NCBI RefSeq assembly: GCF_003018255.1
Contig: NZ_CP027440.1
Origin: Escherichia coli
GTDB lineage: Bacteria > Pseudomonadota > Gammaproteobacteria > Enterobacterales > Enterobacteriaceae
DNA length: 64,000 nucleotides
Strand: one strand, 5' to 3'
Shown here one piece after another: positions 1-56,129 of this stretch; position 1 is the stretch's first letter; each line of letters begins with the position of its first letter. Made by a program: the position numbers and the translations under genes. The notes beneath the pieces are model-generated. The model had not been told where the DNA came from. It saw only the letters and a list, made by a program, of their open reading frames with translations, and ran no database searches.

Positions 1-2068
1 GGTTGGTTTTACGTACTGGATCTTCTTTGCCCAGCGCCGCAGGGACGATGGAGAAGGTGTACGAGATCCCATCTTTGGCGTAGGTGAACGGCAGTTTCGC
101 CACCGACGTCAATGAGGCCACGGCGCCTTTGCGATCACGACCGTGCATCGGGTTAGCGCCCGGCGCGAACGGTGTTCCGGCGCGGCGACCGTCCGGCGTG
201 TTCCCGGTTTTCTGACCGTACACCACGTTAGAGGTGATAGTCAGAATCGATTGGGTCGGCACAGCATTGCGATAGGTTGGCAAAGCTTTAATTTTCTTCA
301 TAAAGCGTTCAACCAGATCGCAGGCAATGCTGTCTACGCGCTCGTCGTTGTTGCCATACTGCGGATATTCGCCGTCAATCTCGAAATCCACCGCCAGGCC
401 GTTTTCATCACGGATTGGTTTCACACGAGCATATTTGATGGCAGACAGGGAGTCCGTTGCCACCGACAGGCCCGCGATGCCGCACGCCATGGTGCGATAG
501 ACATCACGATCATGTAGCGCCATCAGCGAAGCTTCGTAGCTGTACTTGTCGTGCATGTAGTGAATGATATTCAGCGCGCTGATGTACTGTACCGCCAGCC
601 AGTCCATGAAGTGGTCGAGGCTATCCATCACTTTGTCGTAGTCCAGCACGTCATCCATCAACGGAGCCGTTTTCGGGCCAACCTGAATCTTCAGCTTCTC
701 GTCCATTCCGCCGTTGATTGCGTATAGTAGCGTTTTCGCCAGGTTAGCGCGCGCACCGAAGAACTGCATCTGCTTACCAATCACCATTGGGCTGACGCAA
801 CAGGCAATCGCGTAATCGTCGCTATTGAAGTCAGTACGCATCAGATCGTCGTTTTCATACTGCAAAGAGGATGTGACGATAGACACCTGCGCGGCATATT
901 TTTTGAAGGCAATCGGCAAGGCTTCCGACCACAGAATAGTCAGGTTAGGTTCCGGTGCAGGCCCCATAGTGTGCAGGGTGTGTAAATAGCGGAAGGAGTT
1001 TTTGGTCACCAGGGTTCGACCGTCCAGCCCCATCCCGCCGATCACTTCCGTCGCCCAGATCGGGTCGCCGGAGAACAGCGAATCAAATTCCGGCGTACGC
1101 AAGAAGCGCACCATACGGATCTTCATGATGAAGTGGTCGATCAGTTCCTGTGCCTGCTGCTCATTGAGTACGCCTGCTTTAAAGTCGCGCTCAATGTAGA
1201 TATCGAGGAACGATGCCGTGCGCCCCAGCGACATCGCGCCGCCGTTCTGTGATTTCACTGCCGCCAGGTAAGCGAAGTAGAGCCACTGCACCGCTTCCTG
1301 TGCATTCTGCGCCGGGCGAGAGATGTCAAAACCGTATTTCGCCGCCATTTCTTGAATCTGCAACAGCGCACGACGATGTTCCGCCAGCTCCTCACGCAGA
1401 CGGATCGTAGCTTCGAGATCTTCGCCTTTTTCCAGACGGGACTGGAGATCGGCAAACTGCAGTTCGCGTTCACGTACCAGATAACTGATGCCGTAAAGCG
1501 CCACGCGGCGATAGTCACCGATGATACGCCCACGACCATAACCATCTGGTAAACCGGTCAGTACACCAGATTTACGGCAGCGCAGCATATCCGGTGAGTA
1601 AACATCAAATACGCCCTGATTATGGGTTTTACGCAGATCGGTAAAGATGTATTCAAATTCGCTGTCCATTTCACGACCATACGCGTGGAATGAACTTCTA
1701 ATCATATTAATGCCGCCGAACGGATGCAGCGCACGCTTTAATGGCGCATCCGTTTGCAGACCCACTATTTTTTCCAGCGGCTGGTCAATATATCCTGCAT
1801 CATGAGCGGTAATTGTGGTGGCAATATTGGTATCGAAATCCAATGGCGCGTGAGTCGCATTTTCGATACGGATGCCTTCCATCACTTTTTCCCACAATTC
1901 CGTGGTGGCAGGCGTCGCTTCGGCGAGAAAAGATTCATCACCTTCATACGGTGTATAGTTATGTTGAATAAAATCGCGGACATTAATTTCGTTTTTCCAG
2001 TCCGTACCTTTAAAGCCAAGCCATGCGTCGGCGTACAGCTTATCGCTGGTATCAATATCTACCTTCAT
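1..2068 (-). CDS. tdcE: 2-ketobutyrate/pyruvate formate-lyase (glycyl radical enzyme); N-terminal part only, 3' end lies beyond window start
   Basis: Reverse complement from 2068 reads ATG AAG GTA GAT ATT GAT ACC AGC GAT AAG ([10 protein letters not shown]...), open to the window edge; sits upstream of tdcD in the tdc operon order. Confidence 0.88.
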
Positions 2069-32726: not shown

Positions 32727-33476
<750 letters not shown>

Positions 33477-33477
33477 T

Positions 33478-33987
<510 letters not shown>

Positions 33988-34008
<21 letters not shown>

Positions 34009-34431
34009 GTTACGTAGCCAGATCATTTTTTTACCAAAGCCCAGCGTGTTGTCGGTGAATTTGATTTCATCAAGCCGGATTTCCCACACCGGGGCCGACA
34101 GCATTCTGGCAACCGGAAAGCGACGATTGTACGCCTGGCGCGCAAGGTCGCTTTCCTCACCTTCAAGCCTGCGGATCTCGCCTTTAAATTGCACGCCGCG
34201 AATTAACGCTACCGTTTTCGGCTGACCGTTTACCGTTCCGGCAACTGCCGCCTGCGGCCCACTCATCTGCGCGTGGCGCGTTTTTTCTTCCGTCAAAATG
34301 TAGAAGGCAACTTTCTGCGCATCAAAAAGATAAAAGGCATTAGCGCACCAGAGTTCCCCTTCCTGCTGCACACACCAGGTGACAACATGTTGTTTTGCCA
34401 GCCAACGGCTGATGGCGGTGAGTGTTTCCAT
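33988..34431 (-). CDS. yhbP: UPF0306 protein
   Basis: 147-aa ORF; 3' end overlaps yhbO convergently. Confidence 0.85.
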
Positions 34432-34481
34432 TGCTGTTCTCTTTTATACTGTGGGCCTGACCTTAACATGCGACGCAGACG

Positions 34482-34784
34482 ATGACACCCTGGTTTCTTT
34501 ACTTGATCCGTACCGCCGACGATAAGCTTTATACCGGGATCACCACAGATGTCGAACGCCGCTATCAGCAGCACCAAAGCGGCAAAGGGGCGAAAGCACT
34601 GCGCGGGAAAGGAGAACTAACGCTGGCGTTTTCCGCGCCAGTGGGCGATCGTTCGCTGGCACTACGGGCGGAATATCGCGTTAAGCAACTGACCAAACGG
34701 CAAAAAGAGCGTCTGGTAGCGGAAGGCGCAGGGTTTGCAGAACTGTTGAGCAGCCTGCAAACCCCAAAGATTAAAAGCGATTGA
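34482..34784 (+). CDS. yhbQ: GIY-YIG domain nuclease
   Basis: 100-aa ORF with [16 protein letters not shown] (GIY-YIG-like). Confidence 0.85.
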
Positions 34785-35274
34785 AGTGCTCGTGATACTC
34801 AACCAGACCAGTTACACCGTTCAGCGCGTCATCCGCTAAACGATGTACCTGGAAGGCACTTTCAGTGCCCGGCCAGCGGCAACGCAGATCGTGATGTGCC
34901 GCCAGTTCAAAGCCGAAACGGCTGTACAGCGCCGGATCGCCCAGCGTCACCACTGCGGCATAGCCGAACTCATTAAGCGAATCGAGTCCTTCATAGACCA
35001 GTTGGCGTGCCAGCCCCTGTCCACGGTATTTTTCATCTACCGCCAGCGGTGCCATGCCGACCCATTGCAGGTCTTCGCCCTGCACATCAACCGGACTAAA
35101 TGCCACATAGCCAATGACCTGACCTTCGTCATCTGTCGCCACCAGCCCCAGCGTCAGAAAGCCATCTTCACGCAGATCGTGAACCAGCTTCGCTTCCGCA
35201 TCACTTTCGAATGAACGACGCAGCAGGGCATCAATACCCGGCGCATCAATGGGAATTTCTACTCGAATTAGCAT
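34771..35274 (-). CDS. yhbS: GNAT-family N-acetyltransferase
   Basis: 167-aa ORF; 3' end overlaps yhbQ convergently. Confidence 0.85.
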
Positions 35275-35792
35275 GGTTCACCTACCGATGTCTGTTTGGT
35301 TTCAGGCGCGGTTTTCATTCCCGCCTCAACAAAATCCGCCAGTTGCAGCAGCATCATGCGTAAGGCTTTCGGCATTTGCTCCAGTTCAATGGCGTCCATC
35401 AGGTTTTTCACATACAGCCCCAGCTCCGTATCGCCTTCAATTACCAGCCGACGCTGGAAGAAGAGCGTATCCGGATCTTGTTTACGCGCCGCAATCATCA
35501 GCAGATCGCTGGCGTCGGCACTAAAACTCACATCAGCTTGCGCGTTCTGGCTAACGACCAGTTTGCCATTCACCACCGAGGTAAACCATTGCAGGTCAAT
35601 ATCACGCACATGAATACTTAACCAGCGGCCTTCAAGAAACTCCAGCTCGCCATCATCCAACGCCTGGCGGAATTGCCAGCTTAAGACCTGCTCAAGAACC
35701 TGGCGTTTTAGCGCAAATGGCGTCAGTTTTACCGGTACACTCAACAGAGATGGCCCCAAATGCACAATACGGGAACGCAGTTTATCCAACAC
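35268..35792 (-). CDS. ubiT: SCP2-domain lipid-binding protein for O2-independent ubiquinone synthesis
   Basis: ORF track 35268..35816; GTG at 35792 gives the 174-aa product M-LDKLRSRIVHLGPSLL (yhbT). Confidence 0.8.
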   Translation of the reverse strand: MLDKLRSRIVHLGPSLLSVPVKLTPFALKRQVLEQVLSWQFRQALDDGELEFLEGRWLSIHVRDIDLQWFTSVVNGKLVVSQNAQADVSFSADASDLLMIAARKQDPDTLFFQRRLVIEGDTELGLYVKNLMDAIELEQMPKALRMMLLQLADFVEAGMKTAPETKQTSVGEPC

Positions 35793-53137: not shown

Positions 53138-54496
<1,359 letters not shown>

Positions 54497-54503
54497 TTCG
54501 ACA

Positions 54504-56129
54504 TCAACCCTGCCCTTCAGGGGTGGGGTTACCTTGCTTATCCTCTGTAAACTCCTTTCTGAGCATCACATAATCGAAAACATCATGGTTTGCATCCACA
54601 ACCCGTGAGTCTCCTTTATAGTGTGCAATCACTTCCTCCAGCGTTTTCGGTTGTTCCGGCTTTGTTACCCCCATCCACGCATTAATCAGGTAATTATTGT
54701 AAGCTGTGGAAAAGATGTTGTTTTCCGTTGTGCGATCCACGCCATCCCCAAGAACGGGGCTATACCAGATAAACATCGGGACATGATATGCCTGCTGGCT
54801 GGCCTCCCTGCCTCCATGAAAATAGACGTTCTTCTTCGTAGGGTCACGTTCCAGGCCGTGGTCGGCAAAATACATGACCGAGGCGCGGCGATCTTTTAAT
54901 AATTCAAAAACCTGACCTAGCAAACTATCTGTGTAATGAATGGAGTTGTCATAGCAGGCATCCTGATCGTCCTGCGGTTGAAACACGGCGCTGGATTGCG
55001 GATAGGCGCTACAAGCCGGTTCATGGCTTCCATTTAAATGAAGAACAATCAGTTTCTTTTGCTGCGTATTTTGCTGTAATGCTTGCGATAAATGCGGCAA
55101 CAACAATTCATCAAATCCTCTGACATAAACTGTTTCCATGGCGCGCATGGCGATACTGGTAACTGCTGTACCATTCTGCCGAAAAGCGGATTGCGAGCTT
55201 AGCCAGAAAGTCTGAAATCCTGCTTGATTAGCCATATTAATAATGTTGTCCGGGTAATTATGAATGTCATGACTCAAAACGGAATCAGCAGTTAAAGAAA
55301 GGGGAACCGACAGCGCAGTGTAAGGTGCACCGCTTATTGCTTGATTAAACAGTTTGATCTGTTTTCTTTGTGCTTCGACTTGCGGTGTCGTAGAGCGTGT
55401 ATATCCATACAAAGACATATTGTCGACGCGTACAGACTCCCCCACAATCAACACGTAGGTATCAATACCTGTATCCCTGACTGATAATTGAAAATACGGC
55501 ACCGTGTTTGCAATTGAGAGTAATCTTTGATGCTCTTTCGCTGCTAAAGCAAAATAATTGAGATTGAAAAACGGTGTATAGGTAGCAAATCGCGACGCTA
55601 GTATATATGGACTGAACGCTTTTTTATTTTTTGCATCTTTATAAGCAAATTGACAAGCGGAAAATAAACTGCCCGAAATGACAATCAGCAATAATATTCC
55701 TGTCACTTTTTTCGTCGGCAAGGAAACATCATATTTTATTATTACTGCCAAAAAAAGAAGGGATAAAAAGGCAAAAGCACATAGATAAGGGATATACATC
55801 CCCAGCATTTTGACAACTTCATCCGGATCACTCTGCAGCACACTAATCGCAAATCCATCATTGAAAGTTGTACCAAAGGTACACCATGAATAGAGGCTAA
55901 TACTCATGTCTGCCGCTGTCAGTAACACAAATGGTGCGGCAACAAGCAGGCGAAGCGGAAGGGATGATATACGTTTAACAACCAGGATGGTCAGAACGAA
56001 GAACAGCAATCGCTGAACCATATGCGCTCCGGAAGAGGCGACTAAGTTCGTAATACCAAAAACAATAACACAAAGATACAACAACCAATGAGATTTAAAA
56101 CTTCTAACAAATTTGTTGAATACTGTCAT
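54504..56129 (-). CDS. yhbX: putative phosphoethanolamine transferase (sulfatase superfamily, EptA/OpgE-like)
   Basis: ORF track 54504..56162; ATG at 56129 gives MTVFNKFVRSFKSHWLL; N-terminal TM helices then a sulfatase-like domain; convergent with argG across a 7-nt gap. Confidence 0.85.
   Translation of the reverse strand: MTVFNKFVRSFKSHWLLYLCVIVFGITNLVASSGAHMVQRLLFFVLTILVVKRISSLPLRLLVAAPFVLLTAADMSISLYSWCTFGTTFNDGFAISVLQSDPDEVVKMLGMYIPYLCAFAFLSLLFLAVIIKYDVSLPTKKVTGILLLIVISGSLFSACQFAYKDAKNKKAFSPYILASRFATYTPFFNLNYFALAAKEHQRLLSIANTVPYFQLSVRDTGIDTYVLIVGESVRVDNMSLYGYTRSTTPQVEAQRKQIKLFNQAISGAPYTALSVPLSLTADSVLSHDIHNYPDNIINMANQAGFQTFWLSSQSAFRQNGTAVTSIAMRAMETVYVRGFDELLLPHLSQALQQNTQQKKLIVLHLNGSHEPACSAYPQSSAVFQPQDDQDACYDNSIHYTDSLLGQVFELLKDRRASVMYFADHGLERDPTKKNVYFHGGREASQQAYHVPMFIWYSPVLGDGVDRTTENNIFSTAYNNYLINAWMGVTKPEQPKTLEEVIAHYKGDSRVVDANHDVFDYVMLRKEFTEDKQGNPTPEGQG

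Follow-up and report, generated by a model that had tools for sequence, protein, structure and literature searches.

The four small genes yhbO, yhbP, yhbQ, and yhbS of Escherichia coli form two adjacent convergent pairs whose coding sequences overlap tail to tail. In the stretch of DNA analyzed here (64,000 nt, called the window), the analysis favors a rather undramatic origin: these are quite probably ordinary overlaps that arose through movement of stop codons after a spacer was lost, with the minus-strand transcripts ended by Rho and their ends set or protected by stem-loops embedded in the opposite gene. The steps would be as follows. Loss of the spacers between the convergent genes, together with movement of the stop codons, would have generated the overlaps; the tolerant tails of YhbP and YhbQ would then be read antisense into the last codons of the neighbor until the first antisense stop is reached. 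Since no spacer is present, each mRNA would run into the antisense of its neighbor. Transcription of yhbP and of ubiT-yhbS would be ended by Rho some hundreds of nt inside the neighboring gene, and a conserved stem-loop, located 5 to 55 nt past the stop and encoded within the neighbor's coding sequence, would then set or protect the mature 3' end. Losing a spacer would not remove the 3' end signals; they would move into the coding sequence next door. If general, such an arrangement would provide a way for spacerless convergent genes to obtain stable 3' ends. It also provides a worked example of a fixed overlap length, in which the stop of one gene is built from the conserved codons of the other, and it corrects the intuitive idea that a gene pair lacking a spacer must also lack terminators. 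The follow-up is of modest value, and the overlaps carry little weight as a discovery.

The four genes and their overlapping ends

A first-pass annotation of this DNA described a 21-nt overlap of yhbO(+) with yhbP(-), a 14-nt overlap of yhbQ(+) with yhbS(-), and an alternation of strand among four small genes in about 1.8 kb. Both overlaps are exact in the ORF list and the raw sequence, RefSeq agrees with them (Table 1), and the span of the four genes is 1,785 nt. Identical stops and overlaps are present in RefSeq for K-12 MG1655 (b3153-b3156) and for the closest genome. All four are real protein-coding genes: a Pfam scan finds DJ-1/PfpI, GIY-YIG, and GNAT domains in YhbO, YhbQ, and YhbS, respectively, a homologue search returns 1,074 homologues of YhbP, and across 80 genomes all four genes retain 70-100% identity and vary at synonymous sites as coding sequence typically does. 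By RT-PCR, ubiT and yhbS constitute one transcription unit (PMC10470549).

Table 1. Genes, stop codons, overlaps, and candidate 3' end signals of the yhbO-yhbS region (window positions)
Feature	Position	Strand	Remarks
yhbO CDS	33490..34008	+	172 aa, DJ-1/PfpI protein/nucleic acid deglycase; Pfam PF01965, E 1.4e-56; ORF list, RefSeq
Rho-dependent termination peak (published)	~33600..33640	-	window ~33618 = K-12 3299102; antisense to yhbO, ~370 nt past yhbP stop
yhbP 3' hairpin, CGGCUGG-UAA-CCAGCUG	33934..33950	-	yhbP mRNA strand; 37 nt past yhbP stop; within yhbO codons Q149-R154; -11.1 kcal/mol
yhbO/yhbP convergent overlap	33988..34008	.	21 nt; codon-on-codon, antisense register
yhbP stop, TAA (TTA on + strand)	33988-33990	-	raw sequence
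yhbP CDS	33988..34431	-	147 aa, YhbP/UPF0306 family; ORF list, RefSeq, homologues
yhbO stop, TGA	34006-34008	+	raw sequence
yhbQ CDS	34482..34784	+	100 aa, GIY-YIG DNA-damage-response nuclease; PF01541 at residues 4-76
HP2 stem-loop	34692..34717	-	ubiT-yhbS mRNA strand; 53 nt past yhbS stop; within yhbQ codons L70-V79
HP1 stem-loop	34730..34765	-	ubiT-yhbS mRNA strand; starts 5 nt past yhbS stop; within yhbQ tail coding region
yhbQ/yhbS convergent overlap	34771..34784	.	14 nt; raw sequence
yhbS stop, TAA (TTA on + strand)	34771-34773	-	raw sequence
yhbS (hqbA) CDS	34771..35274	-	167 aa, GNAT family; ORF list, Pfam, RefSeq
yhbQ stop, TGA	34782-34784	+	raw sequence
ubiT (yhbT)	35268..35792	-	upstream gene of the ubiT-yhbS operon; stop overlaps yhbS start by 7 nt, same strand

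Long overlaps in annotated prokaryotic genomes are generally suspected of wrongly assigned gene ends, and the true coding regions could in principle end upstream, leaving overlaps that exist only on paper. Nothing in the data favors this reading. Stop codons are not open to annotation choice, and each ORF lacks an earlier in-frame stop. In addition, the same stops recur in 54 to 77 genomes, both overlaps are short, and the Pfam match on YhbO extends to residue 168 of 172. The annotated stops, then, do not lie upstream of the overlaps, the one finding that the first-pass annotation had named as fatal to its description; an artefact of annotation has practically no probability and is rejected, given stops that are unambiguous and conserved.

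Neither the overlaps nor the overlap of the transcripts is new, as both are known from standard annotation and from a 2025 genome-wide map (ExcludonFinder, PMC12288877). In E. coli, 75 overlapping convergent CDS pairs have been counted among 4,131 adjacent pairs (Huvet & Stumpf 2014, PMC4161906). The K-12 stretch that matches the window contains 9 convergent CDS pairs, whose spacings are 613, 54, 42, 113, -21, -14, 117, 7, and 155 nt. If, by rough extrapolation, about 1 in 8 to 10 convergent pairs overlap, a handful of adjacent doublets would be expected per genome; an adjacent doublet is not remarkable compared with chance. What is new is the persistence of the overlaps across the Enterobacteriaceae and the codon logic behind it.

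Prokaryotic convergent overlapping pairs arise by 3' extension after the loss or shift of a stop (PMC2716372, PMC4161906). Like these, and as members of the class of 75 counted in E. coli, the pairs described here consist of real genes that face each other from the two strands and share only a few 3' bases (14 and 21 nt), and they exhibit stop movement among relatives, with overlaps of 4, 14, 15, 21, or 39 nt and, in one case, a gap of 144 nt. Nothing essential differs; the particular features here are that the two pairs are adjacent and that the stop of one partner is derived from conserved codons of the other.

Codon constraint and the persistence of overlap lengths

Conservation of the overlaps had been suggested as a check at the outset, and it is high. 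The yhbQ/yhbS overlap is 14 nt in 77 of 80 species-level Enterobacteriaceae genomes. The yhbO gene is absent from 22 of the 80; among 59 genomes with yhbO, its overlap with yhbP is 21 nt in 41 and 15 nt in 13 (54 of 59 in total). Other lengths can be traced to particular changes: in Klebsiella pneumoniae the yhbO stop has been lost, giving an overlap of 39 nt, and in three Citrobacter genomes a 1-nt insertion reduces the yhbQ/yhbS overlap to 4 nt.

Each pair combines a constrained C-terminus with a drifting tail. In the codon table across genomes, the last 9 residues of YhbO (...REALRLLGA*) are nearly invariant while synonymous change is free, whereas the tail of YhbP after ...WLR varies in both length and sequence, and as many as 12 different residues occur at a single tail position in the alignment. 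In the 22 genomes that lack yhbO, YhbP ends ...WLR(D)(L). The same relationship holds for YhbS, whose C-terminus H-F-N-R-F* is conserved, and YhbQ, whose GIY-YIG domain ends near residue 76 and whose C-terminal tail is variable.

The stops of the drifting partners are written in the codons of the constrained ones. The TAA stop of yhbP is the antisense of yhbO codon Leu167 (TTA), and this codon is TTA or CTA in 42 of 56 genomes (75%). When L169 is also considered, a TTA or CTA codon is present at L167 or L169 in 54 of 54 genomes, compared with a background of 12.5% among the 6,245 Leu codons in these genes. Judging from these codon counts, the TTA/CTA leucine codon in yhbO that is needed for the yhbP stop is held by selection. 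In the other pair, a YhbS Phe codon (TTY) and the A that opens the codon after it, read on the opposite strand, spell the yhbQ stop (TGA or TAA). The Phe codon is TTC or TTT, and the next codon begins with A, in 77 of 77 genomes; thus, the Phe-Asn codons of YhbS fix the yhbQ stop. The constrained partner, YhbO or YhbS, sets the length of its overlap and so keeps it stable, and coding constraint, as read from these alignments, accounts for the persistence of the lengths. The overlaps themselves would be selectively near-neutral, although their strong conservation would also be in keeping with selection for the arrangement.

Rho-dependent termination and stem-loops within the neighboring genes

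The first-pass annotation also held that the convergent overlaps leave no room for terminators. Intergenic room is indeed absent, yet signals are present inside the opposite gene: a Rho region antisense to yhbO, and conserved stem-loops after the yhbP and yhbS stops. The Rho region was mapped by Adams et al. (2021, eLife, supplementary file 2) as a bicyclomycin-sensitive region with a Rho score of 4.79 (p 2.7e-9). Its position is coarse, given the 800-nt windows of the mapping, and its coordinates were transferred here by an offset of 3265484. At this locus the mapping concerns only the yhbP-side transcript; Rho would be expected to end the other three transcripts as well. The C/G ratio of the RNA is 1.83 at +41..120 past the yhbP stop and 1.2-1.4 past the yhbS stop, values that must be read against the general tendency of the antisense of coding sequence to be C-rich. 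Rho-mapping reads at the locus are low (77 and 20 in 800-nt windows).

Intrinsic termination signals, in the sense of a G+C-rich stem-loop that has a U tract immediately behind it and is conserved among relatives, are represented at the four-gene locus by weak candidates only. Across 59-81 orthologous loci no terminator-like site is conserved in most genomes, the best being present in 23 of 81 with a weak tail, AUCUUUAU. One candidate, GCGCG-UGG-CGCGU plus U6 at 34268-34281, 260 nt past the yhbO stop, was rejected: its energy is only -5.5 kcal/mol and it occurs in 8 of 59 genomes. Past the yhbO and yhbQ stops, RNAalifold predicts no conserved structure (consensus -0.17 and -2.15 kcal/mol, respectively), and no Rfam family matches within 33300-35500 at E <= 1. 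The Term-seq tables searched, from the Adams 2021 and TERMITe supplements, list no 3' end for any of the four genes, and neither the TERMITe nor the PMC10349824 supplements mention them.

The minus strand, by comparison, carries three stem-loops past the yhbP and yhbS stops. Past the yhbP stop lies one hairpin, with a weak U tract, AUCUUUAUU, behind it. Within this hairpin, 96.9% of cells are paired in 56 genomes, and third-position entropy at the yhbO codons L150, T152, and S153 is 0.26, 0, and 0.36, respectively, versus a gene mean of 1.30. The two strands differ, with 78 G.U cells versus 3 A.C cells, which favors folding of the yhbP-sense strand. Covariation does not rise above the shuffle control in the 56 genomes, so the case for this hairpin is built on the low synonymous-site entropy and the asymmetry between strands. 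Both signals might in part stem from codon preference in the conserved peptide QLVTSR.

Two further stem-loops, HP1 and HP2, follow the yhbS stop. HP1 contains a perfect 10-bp inverted repeat (34731-34740/34755-34764), has z-scores of -2.6 and -2.7, and covaries: pair 12-43 is GC in 27 genomes and CG in 13, and pair 14-41 is UA in 31 and CG in 3. It occurs in Escherichia, Citrobacter, Salmonella, Lelliottia, Trabulsiella, and several further genera and is missing where the yhbQ tail is shorter (for example, in Klebsiella and most Enterobacter). HP1 can fold on both strands and has no strand asymmetry. The arms of HP2 are ACCAGACG...CGUUUGGU in the window and AACGAGGCGC...GCGCUUCGUU in Enterobacter and Klebsiella. 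For this stem-loop, 88.5% of cells are paired and both sides have changed in 4 of 10 pairs, as judged against an empirical null of random third-position column pairs. One strand is again favored (109 G.U versus 22 A.C cells), and RNAalifold predicts the structure independently, with a modest consensus energy of -6.1 kcal/mol. Among distant yhbQ homologues, three informative contexts lack an adjacent yhbS (L085, L086, and L092); in the two covered at the sequence level, L085 and L086, HP2 is not formed, a result that carries little weight given so small and diverged a sample. In another relative (L090), a hairpin that is not homologous to HP1 or HP2 is found after the yhbS stop.

These features resemble the hairpin-protected ends of Rho-dependent transcripts modeled by Dar & Sorek 2018 (PMC6061677). 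Stable stem-loops that lack a proper U tract lie shortly past the yhbP and yhbS stops, the RNA beyond them has more C than G, as antisense of coding sequence tends to have anyway, and, in the case of yhbP, bicyclomycin-sensitive termination occurs further downstream. By analogy, the hairpins may mark or protect the 3' ends. The difference is that the stem-loops here are inside the coding sequence of the convergent neighbor, which imposes a double constraint, and that they are candidate ends only. A stronger version, tentative and somewhat short of an even chance in our estimation, is that the antisense strands of yhbO and yhbQ carry stem-loops under selection and that these define or shield the 3' ends of the yhbP and ubiT-yhbS mRNAs, the same bases serving both as codons and as 3' structure and being maintained by synonymous-site constraint and covariation across the Enterobacteriaceae.

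Stem-loops at convergent junctions could also act in another way. In the collision model of Ju et al. 2019, as summarized by Wang et al. 2022 (bioRxiv 10.1101/2022.10.23.513370), RNA polymerases that meet head-on at the overlap would halt one another there, with stem-loops serving as pause elements that fix the site. According to that summary, such termination has been described for E. coli convergent pairs with terminators unlike intrinsic or Rho-dependent ones and needs a stem-loop in the nascent RNA. HP1 resembles the bidirectional or overlapping bidirectional terminators described there, as it adjoins the yhbQ/yhbS overlap and folds on both strands without asymmetry. However, the stems here lack both the flanking A/U tract and the intergenic location given in that summary, and two of the three hairpins, HP2 and the hairpin after yhbP, favor one strand only. 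Furthermore, the bicyclomycin sensitivity of the yhbP-side transcript indicates that it is Rho-dependent, and the same source reports less efficient termination for lowly than for highly expressed convergent pairs, while the reads at this locus are few (77 and 20). Collision is thus a very improbable explanation, and Rho-dependent termination with embedded stem-loops is preferred.

Transcript overlap and its possible regulatory use

According to the first-pass annotation, the overlaps force the transcripts into mutual 3' antisense pairing. Overlap of the transcripts is borne out by published RNA-seq: yhbO-yhbP and yhbQ-yhbS are among the 165 convergent E. coli excludons of ExcludonFinder (PMC12288877, Table 1), a class whose members overlap at the transcript level in 50% or more of 58 MG1655 transcriptomes. 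Duplex formation itself is putative for either pair; the ExcludonFinder authors state that their validation of double-stranded RNA with p19 was not feasible for convergent pairs (PMC12288877). In these two pairs the overlap extends beyond untranslated regions to the coding sequences themselves. The outcome that defines an excludon, mutually exclusive expression with RNase III processing, is putative for both. Transcript overlap is obligatory whenever both genes are on, and any regulatory use of it is only putative.

The ubiT-yhbS transcription unit is influenced by Fnr. A regulatory excludon would build on such a circumstance: the overlaps would be kept for mutually exclusive expression, achieved through transcriptional interference and cleavage of duplexes by RNase III, so that, for example, Fnr-driven anaerobic expression of ubiT-yhbS would shut off yhbQ, the gene for the DNA-damage nuclease, and yhbP would counteract yhbO. 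The presence of both pairs in the ExcludonFinder core set and the higher synteny of excludon pairs in general (PMC12288877) are in keeping with this idea, as are the conservation of overlaps and gene order across the 80 Enterobacteriaceae genomes, the single Fnr-influenced ubiT-yhbS unit, and the Rho region, which places the yhbP-side transcript ~370 nt into yhbO. We nevertheless consider it unlikely. The conserved overlap lengths are fully explained by coding constraints, and in the literature searched neither pair is reported to show reciprocal expression, to form duplex RNA, or to depend on RNase III. Deletion of yhbQ or yhbP from a yhbS plasmid, a test on a plasmid rather than of chromosomal regulation, alters the YhbS phenotype little or not at all. 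Coupling of yhbO with yhbP is, moreover, dispensable, since 22 of the 80 genomes have no yhbO and a more distant relative that shares the gene order has 144 nt between the two genes, with a canonical terminator belonging to yhbO. Two relatives that have a spacer there, L089 and L090, carry canonical terminators after yhbO.

Four small genes with overlapping ends

Within 1,785 nt of the window sequence lie four small genes on alternating strands: yhbO (a DJ-1/PfpI deglycase), yhbP (YhbP-family), yhbQ (a GIY-YIG nuclease) and yhbS (a GNAT acetyltransferase, to which the newer name HqbA is now also given; PMC10710024). When the stop codons are read directly, yhbO and yhbP overlap tail to tail by 21 nt and yhbQ and yhbS by 14 nt, exactly the lengths claimed in the first-pass annotation; the annotated stops do not lie upstream of the overlaps in either RefSeq or the sequence, and the observation stands. 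The same genes and overlaps are present in the RefSeq annotation of the closest genome and of K-12 MG1655, and 5,424 of 5,426 complete E. coli genomes match the window at 95-99% identity (best, 99.2%). An annotation artefact is excluded as the source of the overlaps.

Coordinates of the four genes and of the stem-loops that follow yhbP and yhbS
Feature	Window position	Strand	K-12 MG1655 (b3153-b3156, RefSeq)	Remark
yhbO	33490..34008	+	3298974..3299492 +	stop TGA 34006-34008, read from sequence
yhbP	33988..34431	-	3299472..3299915 -	stop TAA (TTA at 33988-33990 on + strand)
yhbQ	34482..34784	+	3299966..3300268 +	stop TGA 34782-34784
yhbS	34771..35274	-	3300255..3300758 -	stop is TTA at 34771-34773 on + strand
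yhbP 3' hairpin	33950 to 33934	-		37 nt after yhbP stop, inside yhbO codons 149-154
HP1	34765 to 34730	-		begins 5 nt past yhbS stop, inside yhbQ coding sequence
HP2	34717 to 34692	-		53 nt past yhbS stop, in yhbQ codons L70-V79

yhbP and yhbQ diverge from start codons that are only 50 nt apart (34432-34481), so their promoters and 5' UTRs must overlap each other or the neighbor's coding sequence; a consensus scan of this interval found no σ70-like site. On the other side of the cluster, the stop of ubiT (yhbT) and the start of yhbS, which lie on one strand, share 7 nt (35268-35274). This fits the single ubiT-yhbS transcription unit of PMC10470549, in which the two genes are co-transcribed and yhbS is influenced by Fnr.

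The overlaps are already known. Both pairs are named among the 165 convergent excludons of MG1655 in Table 1 of ExcludonFinder (Nucleic Acids Res 2025, PMC12288877), which required RNA-seq-defined transcripts to overlap in no fewer than half of the 58 transcriptomes. Antisense overlap of the transcripts, as inferred in the first-pass annotation, is thus documented at the transcript level for both pairs. The defining functional features of an excludon (mutually exclusive expression and RNase III processing) are putative for these pairs, and the authors were unable to validate convergent pairs by p19 capture of double-stranded RNA (PMC12288877). Two other pairs within the window, yhaV-agaR and argG-yhbX, are on the same list (PMC12288877). 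The convergent gap is 54 nt for yhaV-agaR in K-12 and 7 nt for argG(+), ending at 54496, and yhbX(-), ending at 54504.

In the K-12 counterpart of the window, the gaps of the nine convergent CDS pairs are 613, 54, 42, 113, -21, -14, 117, 7 and 155 nt; short convergent spacers are therefore common, and yhbO/yhbP and yhbQ/yhbS are the only pairs in the window that overlap. A published count for E. coli gives 75 convergent overlapping CDS pairs among 4,131 adjacent pairs (PMC4161906). If about one convergent pair in 8-10 overlaps, a rough extrapolation from this count and the K-12 gaps, chance alone would give a few adjacent doublets per genome, and the doublet is not very unusual.

Conservation of the overlaps and the codons beneath them

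The locus was collected from 80 species-level Enterobacteriaceae genomes with a YhbP alignment as probe; the four genes were located by tblastn, and each was extended to its own stop. Of the 80 genomes, 77 have a yhbQ/yhbS overlap of 14 nt (with the annotated K-12 and O169:H41 loci, 79 of 82 sequences); it measures 4 nt in three Citrobacter genomes, in which a 1-nt insertion in a G run shifts the frame of the yhbQ tail. Of the 59 genomes with yhbO, 41 have a yhbO/yhbP overlap of 21 nt and 13 have one of 15 nt. There are five exceptions. In two Escherichia genomes yhbO is frameshifted by a 7-nt deletion, a metagenome-assembled genome has lost the yhbP stop, and another genome has only a partial, diverged yhbO. 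In the fifth, Klebsiella pneumoniae ATCC 13883, the TGA stop of yhbO is replaced (GCC GGC ATC ...), making the gene six codons longer and the overlap 39 nt, vs 21 nt in other Klebsiella. In the two Escherichia loci (L003 and L005) the deletion, at the equivalent of window ~33950-33965, adjoins the yhbP 3' hairpin; yhbO is an apparent pseudogene whose shifted frame enters yhbP by 25 or 238 nt.

At this locus yhbO is missing from 22 of the 80 genomes, namely the Citrobacter freundii group, E. albertii, E. whittamii, Kluyvera and Trabulsiella (loci L007, L009, L011, L014, L015, L018-L022, L024, L026, L030, L033, L049, L061, L064, L068, L069 and L071-L073). YhbP ends early in all 22, at ...WLR(D)(L), and is 5-7 residues shorter. 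Tens of bases past yhbP, the Citrobacter and Trabulsiella loci of this group carry ATG-AGC/AGT(-CA), the expected start of yraR, on the same strand. A regulatory excludon, a possible but unsupported reading of the listed pairs, fits poorly with this loss of yhbO and is unlikely.

Codon tables of the gene ends reveal a constrained and a drifting partner in each pair. YhbO ends in nine almost invariant residues (R-E-A-L-R-L/I-L-G-A) with freely variable third codon positions; each of the last nine positions of YhbP accepts up to 12 different residues, which follow the synonymous changes in yhbO. For example, GGT, GGC or GGG at yhbO Gly171 gives Thr, Ala or Pro in YhbP. Since the two frames lie codon on codon in antisense, yhbP takes its stop from a leucine codon of yhbO that is TTA or CTA. 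Such a codon stands at Leu167 in 42 of 56 genomes and otherwise at Leu169; all 54 regular genomes keep one, although TTA and CTA make up only 12.5% of the 6,245 leucine codons in these genes. The similar frequencies of TTA and CTA at Leu167 imply repeated synonymous switching that retains the antisense stop. In the second pair, YhbS ends in H-F-N-R-F/L/V, and the antisense of its Phe codon (TTC/TTT) plus the first A of the next codon reads TGA or TAA. Thus, the yhbQ stop is present in 77 of 77 genomes without selection of its own, and the YhbQ tail ahead of it is highly variable.

In the standard model, convergent overlaps arise by 3' extension after a stop codon is lost or shifted (PMC2716372). 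The codon patterns at both junctions fit this model and account for the conservation without any function of the overlap itself. All tested defining features of convergent overlapping gene pairs are found here, and the pairs are probably ordinary overlaps produced by stop-codon movement, which the constrained C-termini of YhbO and YhbS would hold in place.

Stem-loops inside the neighboring genes

The stem-loop after yhbP has a folding energy of -11.1 kcal/mol, and 96.9% of its cells are paired across 56 distinct sequences, in which covariation is not above controls. Under the stem, third-position entropy is 0.26 at L150, 0 at T152 (ACC in every genome) and 0.36 at S153, vs a gene mean of 1.30 over 77 conserved four-fold or six-fold yhbO codons; these are three of only five among the 77 with values <0.5. 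The flanking codons R154, T155 and P156 have entropies of 1.99, 1.68 and 1.46, and the loop codon is freely variable. Changes read on the yhbP-sense strand give G.U in 78 cells vs A.C in 3; the helix is thus 96.9% paired on this strand vs 77.8% on the opposite one.

Two further stem-loops follow yhbS. HP1, a perfect 10-bp inverted repeat in the window (fold z-scores -2.6 and -2.7), recurs in several genera, where some pairs are flipped (columns 12-43 pair as GC in 27 sequences but as CG in 13). In HP2, 88.5% of cells are paired and 4 of 10 pairs are altered on both sides; pair 60-81 is GC 36, AU 12, CG 7 and GU 6, and pair 63-78 is GC 53, AU 8 and GU 9. The joint covariation score of HP1 and HP2 is 0.132, vs 0.078 in shuffles (reached by 0 of 500) and 0.104 for the best slid control. 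All the variable pairs are between third codon positions. To preserve relatedness, the null was drawn from these genomes as 213,940 random pairs of variable third-position columns, and its mean paired fraction was 0.40 (sd 0.19). In HP2, the four third-position pairs are paired at 0.77, 0.89, 0.77 and 0.69 (empirical tails 0.033, 0.002, 0.033 and 0.082, or 0.009, 0.001, 0.033 and 0.0001 with the further requirement of kept double changes). From the same alignment, RNAalifold predicts HP2 alone (-6.1 kcal/mol). Because of an invariant G.U, the helix is better on the yhbS-sense strand (88.5% paired vs 77.5% on the other; G.U 109 cells vs A.C 22). Across Enterobacteriaceae, HP2 has undergone compensatory synonymous substitution. 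HP2 does not form in two of two distant yhbQ homologues that do not adjoin yhbS, a weak comparison, given their small number and their divergence.

Transcript ends, Rho and relatives with a spacer

It had been proposed that the overlaps leave no room for terminators. There is indeed no intergenic room, but signals are present in the form of a Rho region and the conserved stem-loops in the neighboring genes. Adams et al. 2021 (eLife 10:e62438, supplementary file 2) report a minus-strand Rho termination region, antisense to yhbO, at K-12 3299102, with upstream/downstream read counts of 77/20 without and 115/143 with bicyclomycin (Rho score 4.79, p 2.7e-9). In window coordinates this is close to 33618, ~370 nt beyond the stop of yhbP, a coarse position since 800-nt windows were compared. 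The bicyclomycin sensitivity, the strand bias of the hairpins and the small number of reads make termination driven by collision very improbable.

The definition of an intrinsic or bidirectional intrinsic terminator does not apply here. No proper U tract follows the yhbP 3' hairpin, HP1 or HP2; intrinsic terminators inside the neighboring gene are not conserved at the orthologous loci scanned; the first 110 nt after the yhbO and yhbQ stops contain no conserved structure; and no Rfam family matches the region. Nearly all genomes conserve a run, CAUUUUUUUACC, at 34014-34033 (+), 14-27 nt past the stop of yhbO. It corresponds in antisense to the invariant YhbP Lys-Lys (AAA AAA) and is not a terminator by the usual definition, as no hairpin lies adjacent ahead of it.

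The antisense extensions are richer in C than in G (C/G ratio up to 1.83 after the yhbP hairpin), as the antisense of coding sequence tends to be anyway. Dar & Sorek described Rho-dependent transcripts whose steady-state 3' ends directly follow a stable stem-loop that lacks a U tract and is itself followed at once by rut sites (PMC6061677). The hairpins here resemble this description in lacking a proper U tract; unlike those ends, they sit inside the neighbor's coding sequence. The transcription units run on into the antisense of the neighbor, and Rho ends the yhbP-side transcript well inside yhbO; for the yhbP and ubiT-yhbS mRNAs, the embedded stem-loops may define or shield the 3' ends. That these hairpins are dual-use sequence, at once codons and 3' end structure, and that this is general for convergent genes without spacers, is a tentative suggestion, somewhat short of an even chance.

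Two more distant relatives have a spacer after yhbO, and in both it occurs together with a canonical terminator. L090 (Logan ERR15373422; YhbQ 63% identical) keeps the order yraR-yhbO-yhbP-yhbQ-yhbS-ubiT-ubiU and the 14-nt yhbQ/yhbS overlap; a 144-nt spacer (L090:1819-1962) separates yhbO from yhbP, and directly 3' of yhbO is the intrinsic terminator AGCCGGG-UUCG-CCCGGCU followed by UUUGUUCUCUUUG. This arrangement also fits poorly with a regulatory excludon. About 30 nt past its yhbS stop, L090 has a different, non-homologous 10-bp hairpin. L089 (GCA_052258045.1) is without yhbP, has a canonical terminator after yhbO, and has a yhbQ/yhbS overlap of 4 nt. Between its yhbO and yhbQ (L089:1937-2500), a 9-nt unit, GCCAGGTCA, is repeated in a long tandem array that also includes variants of it.
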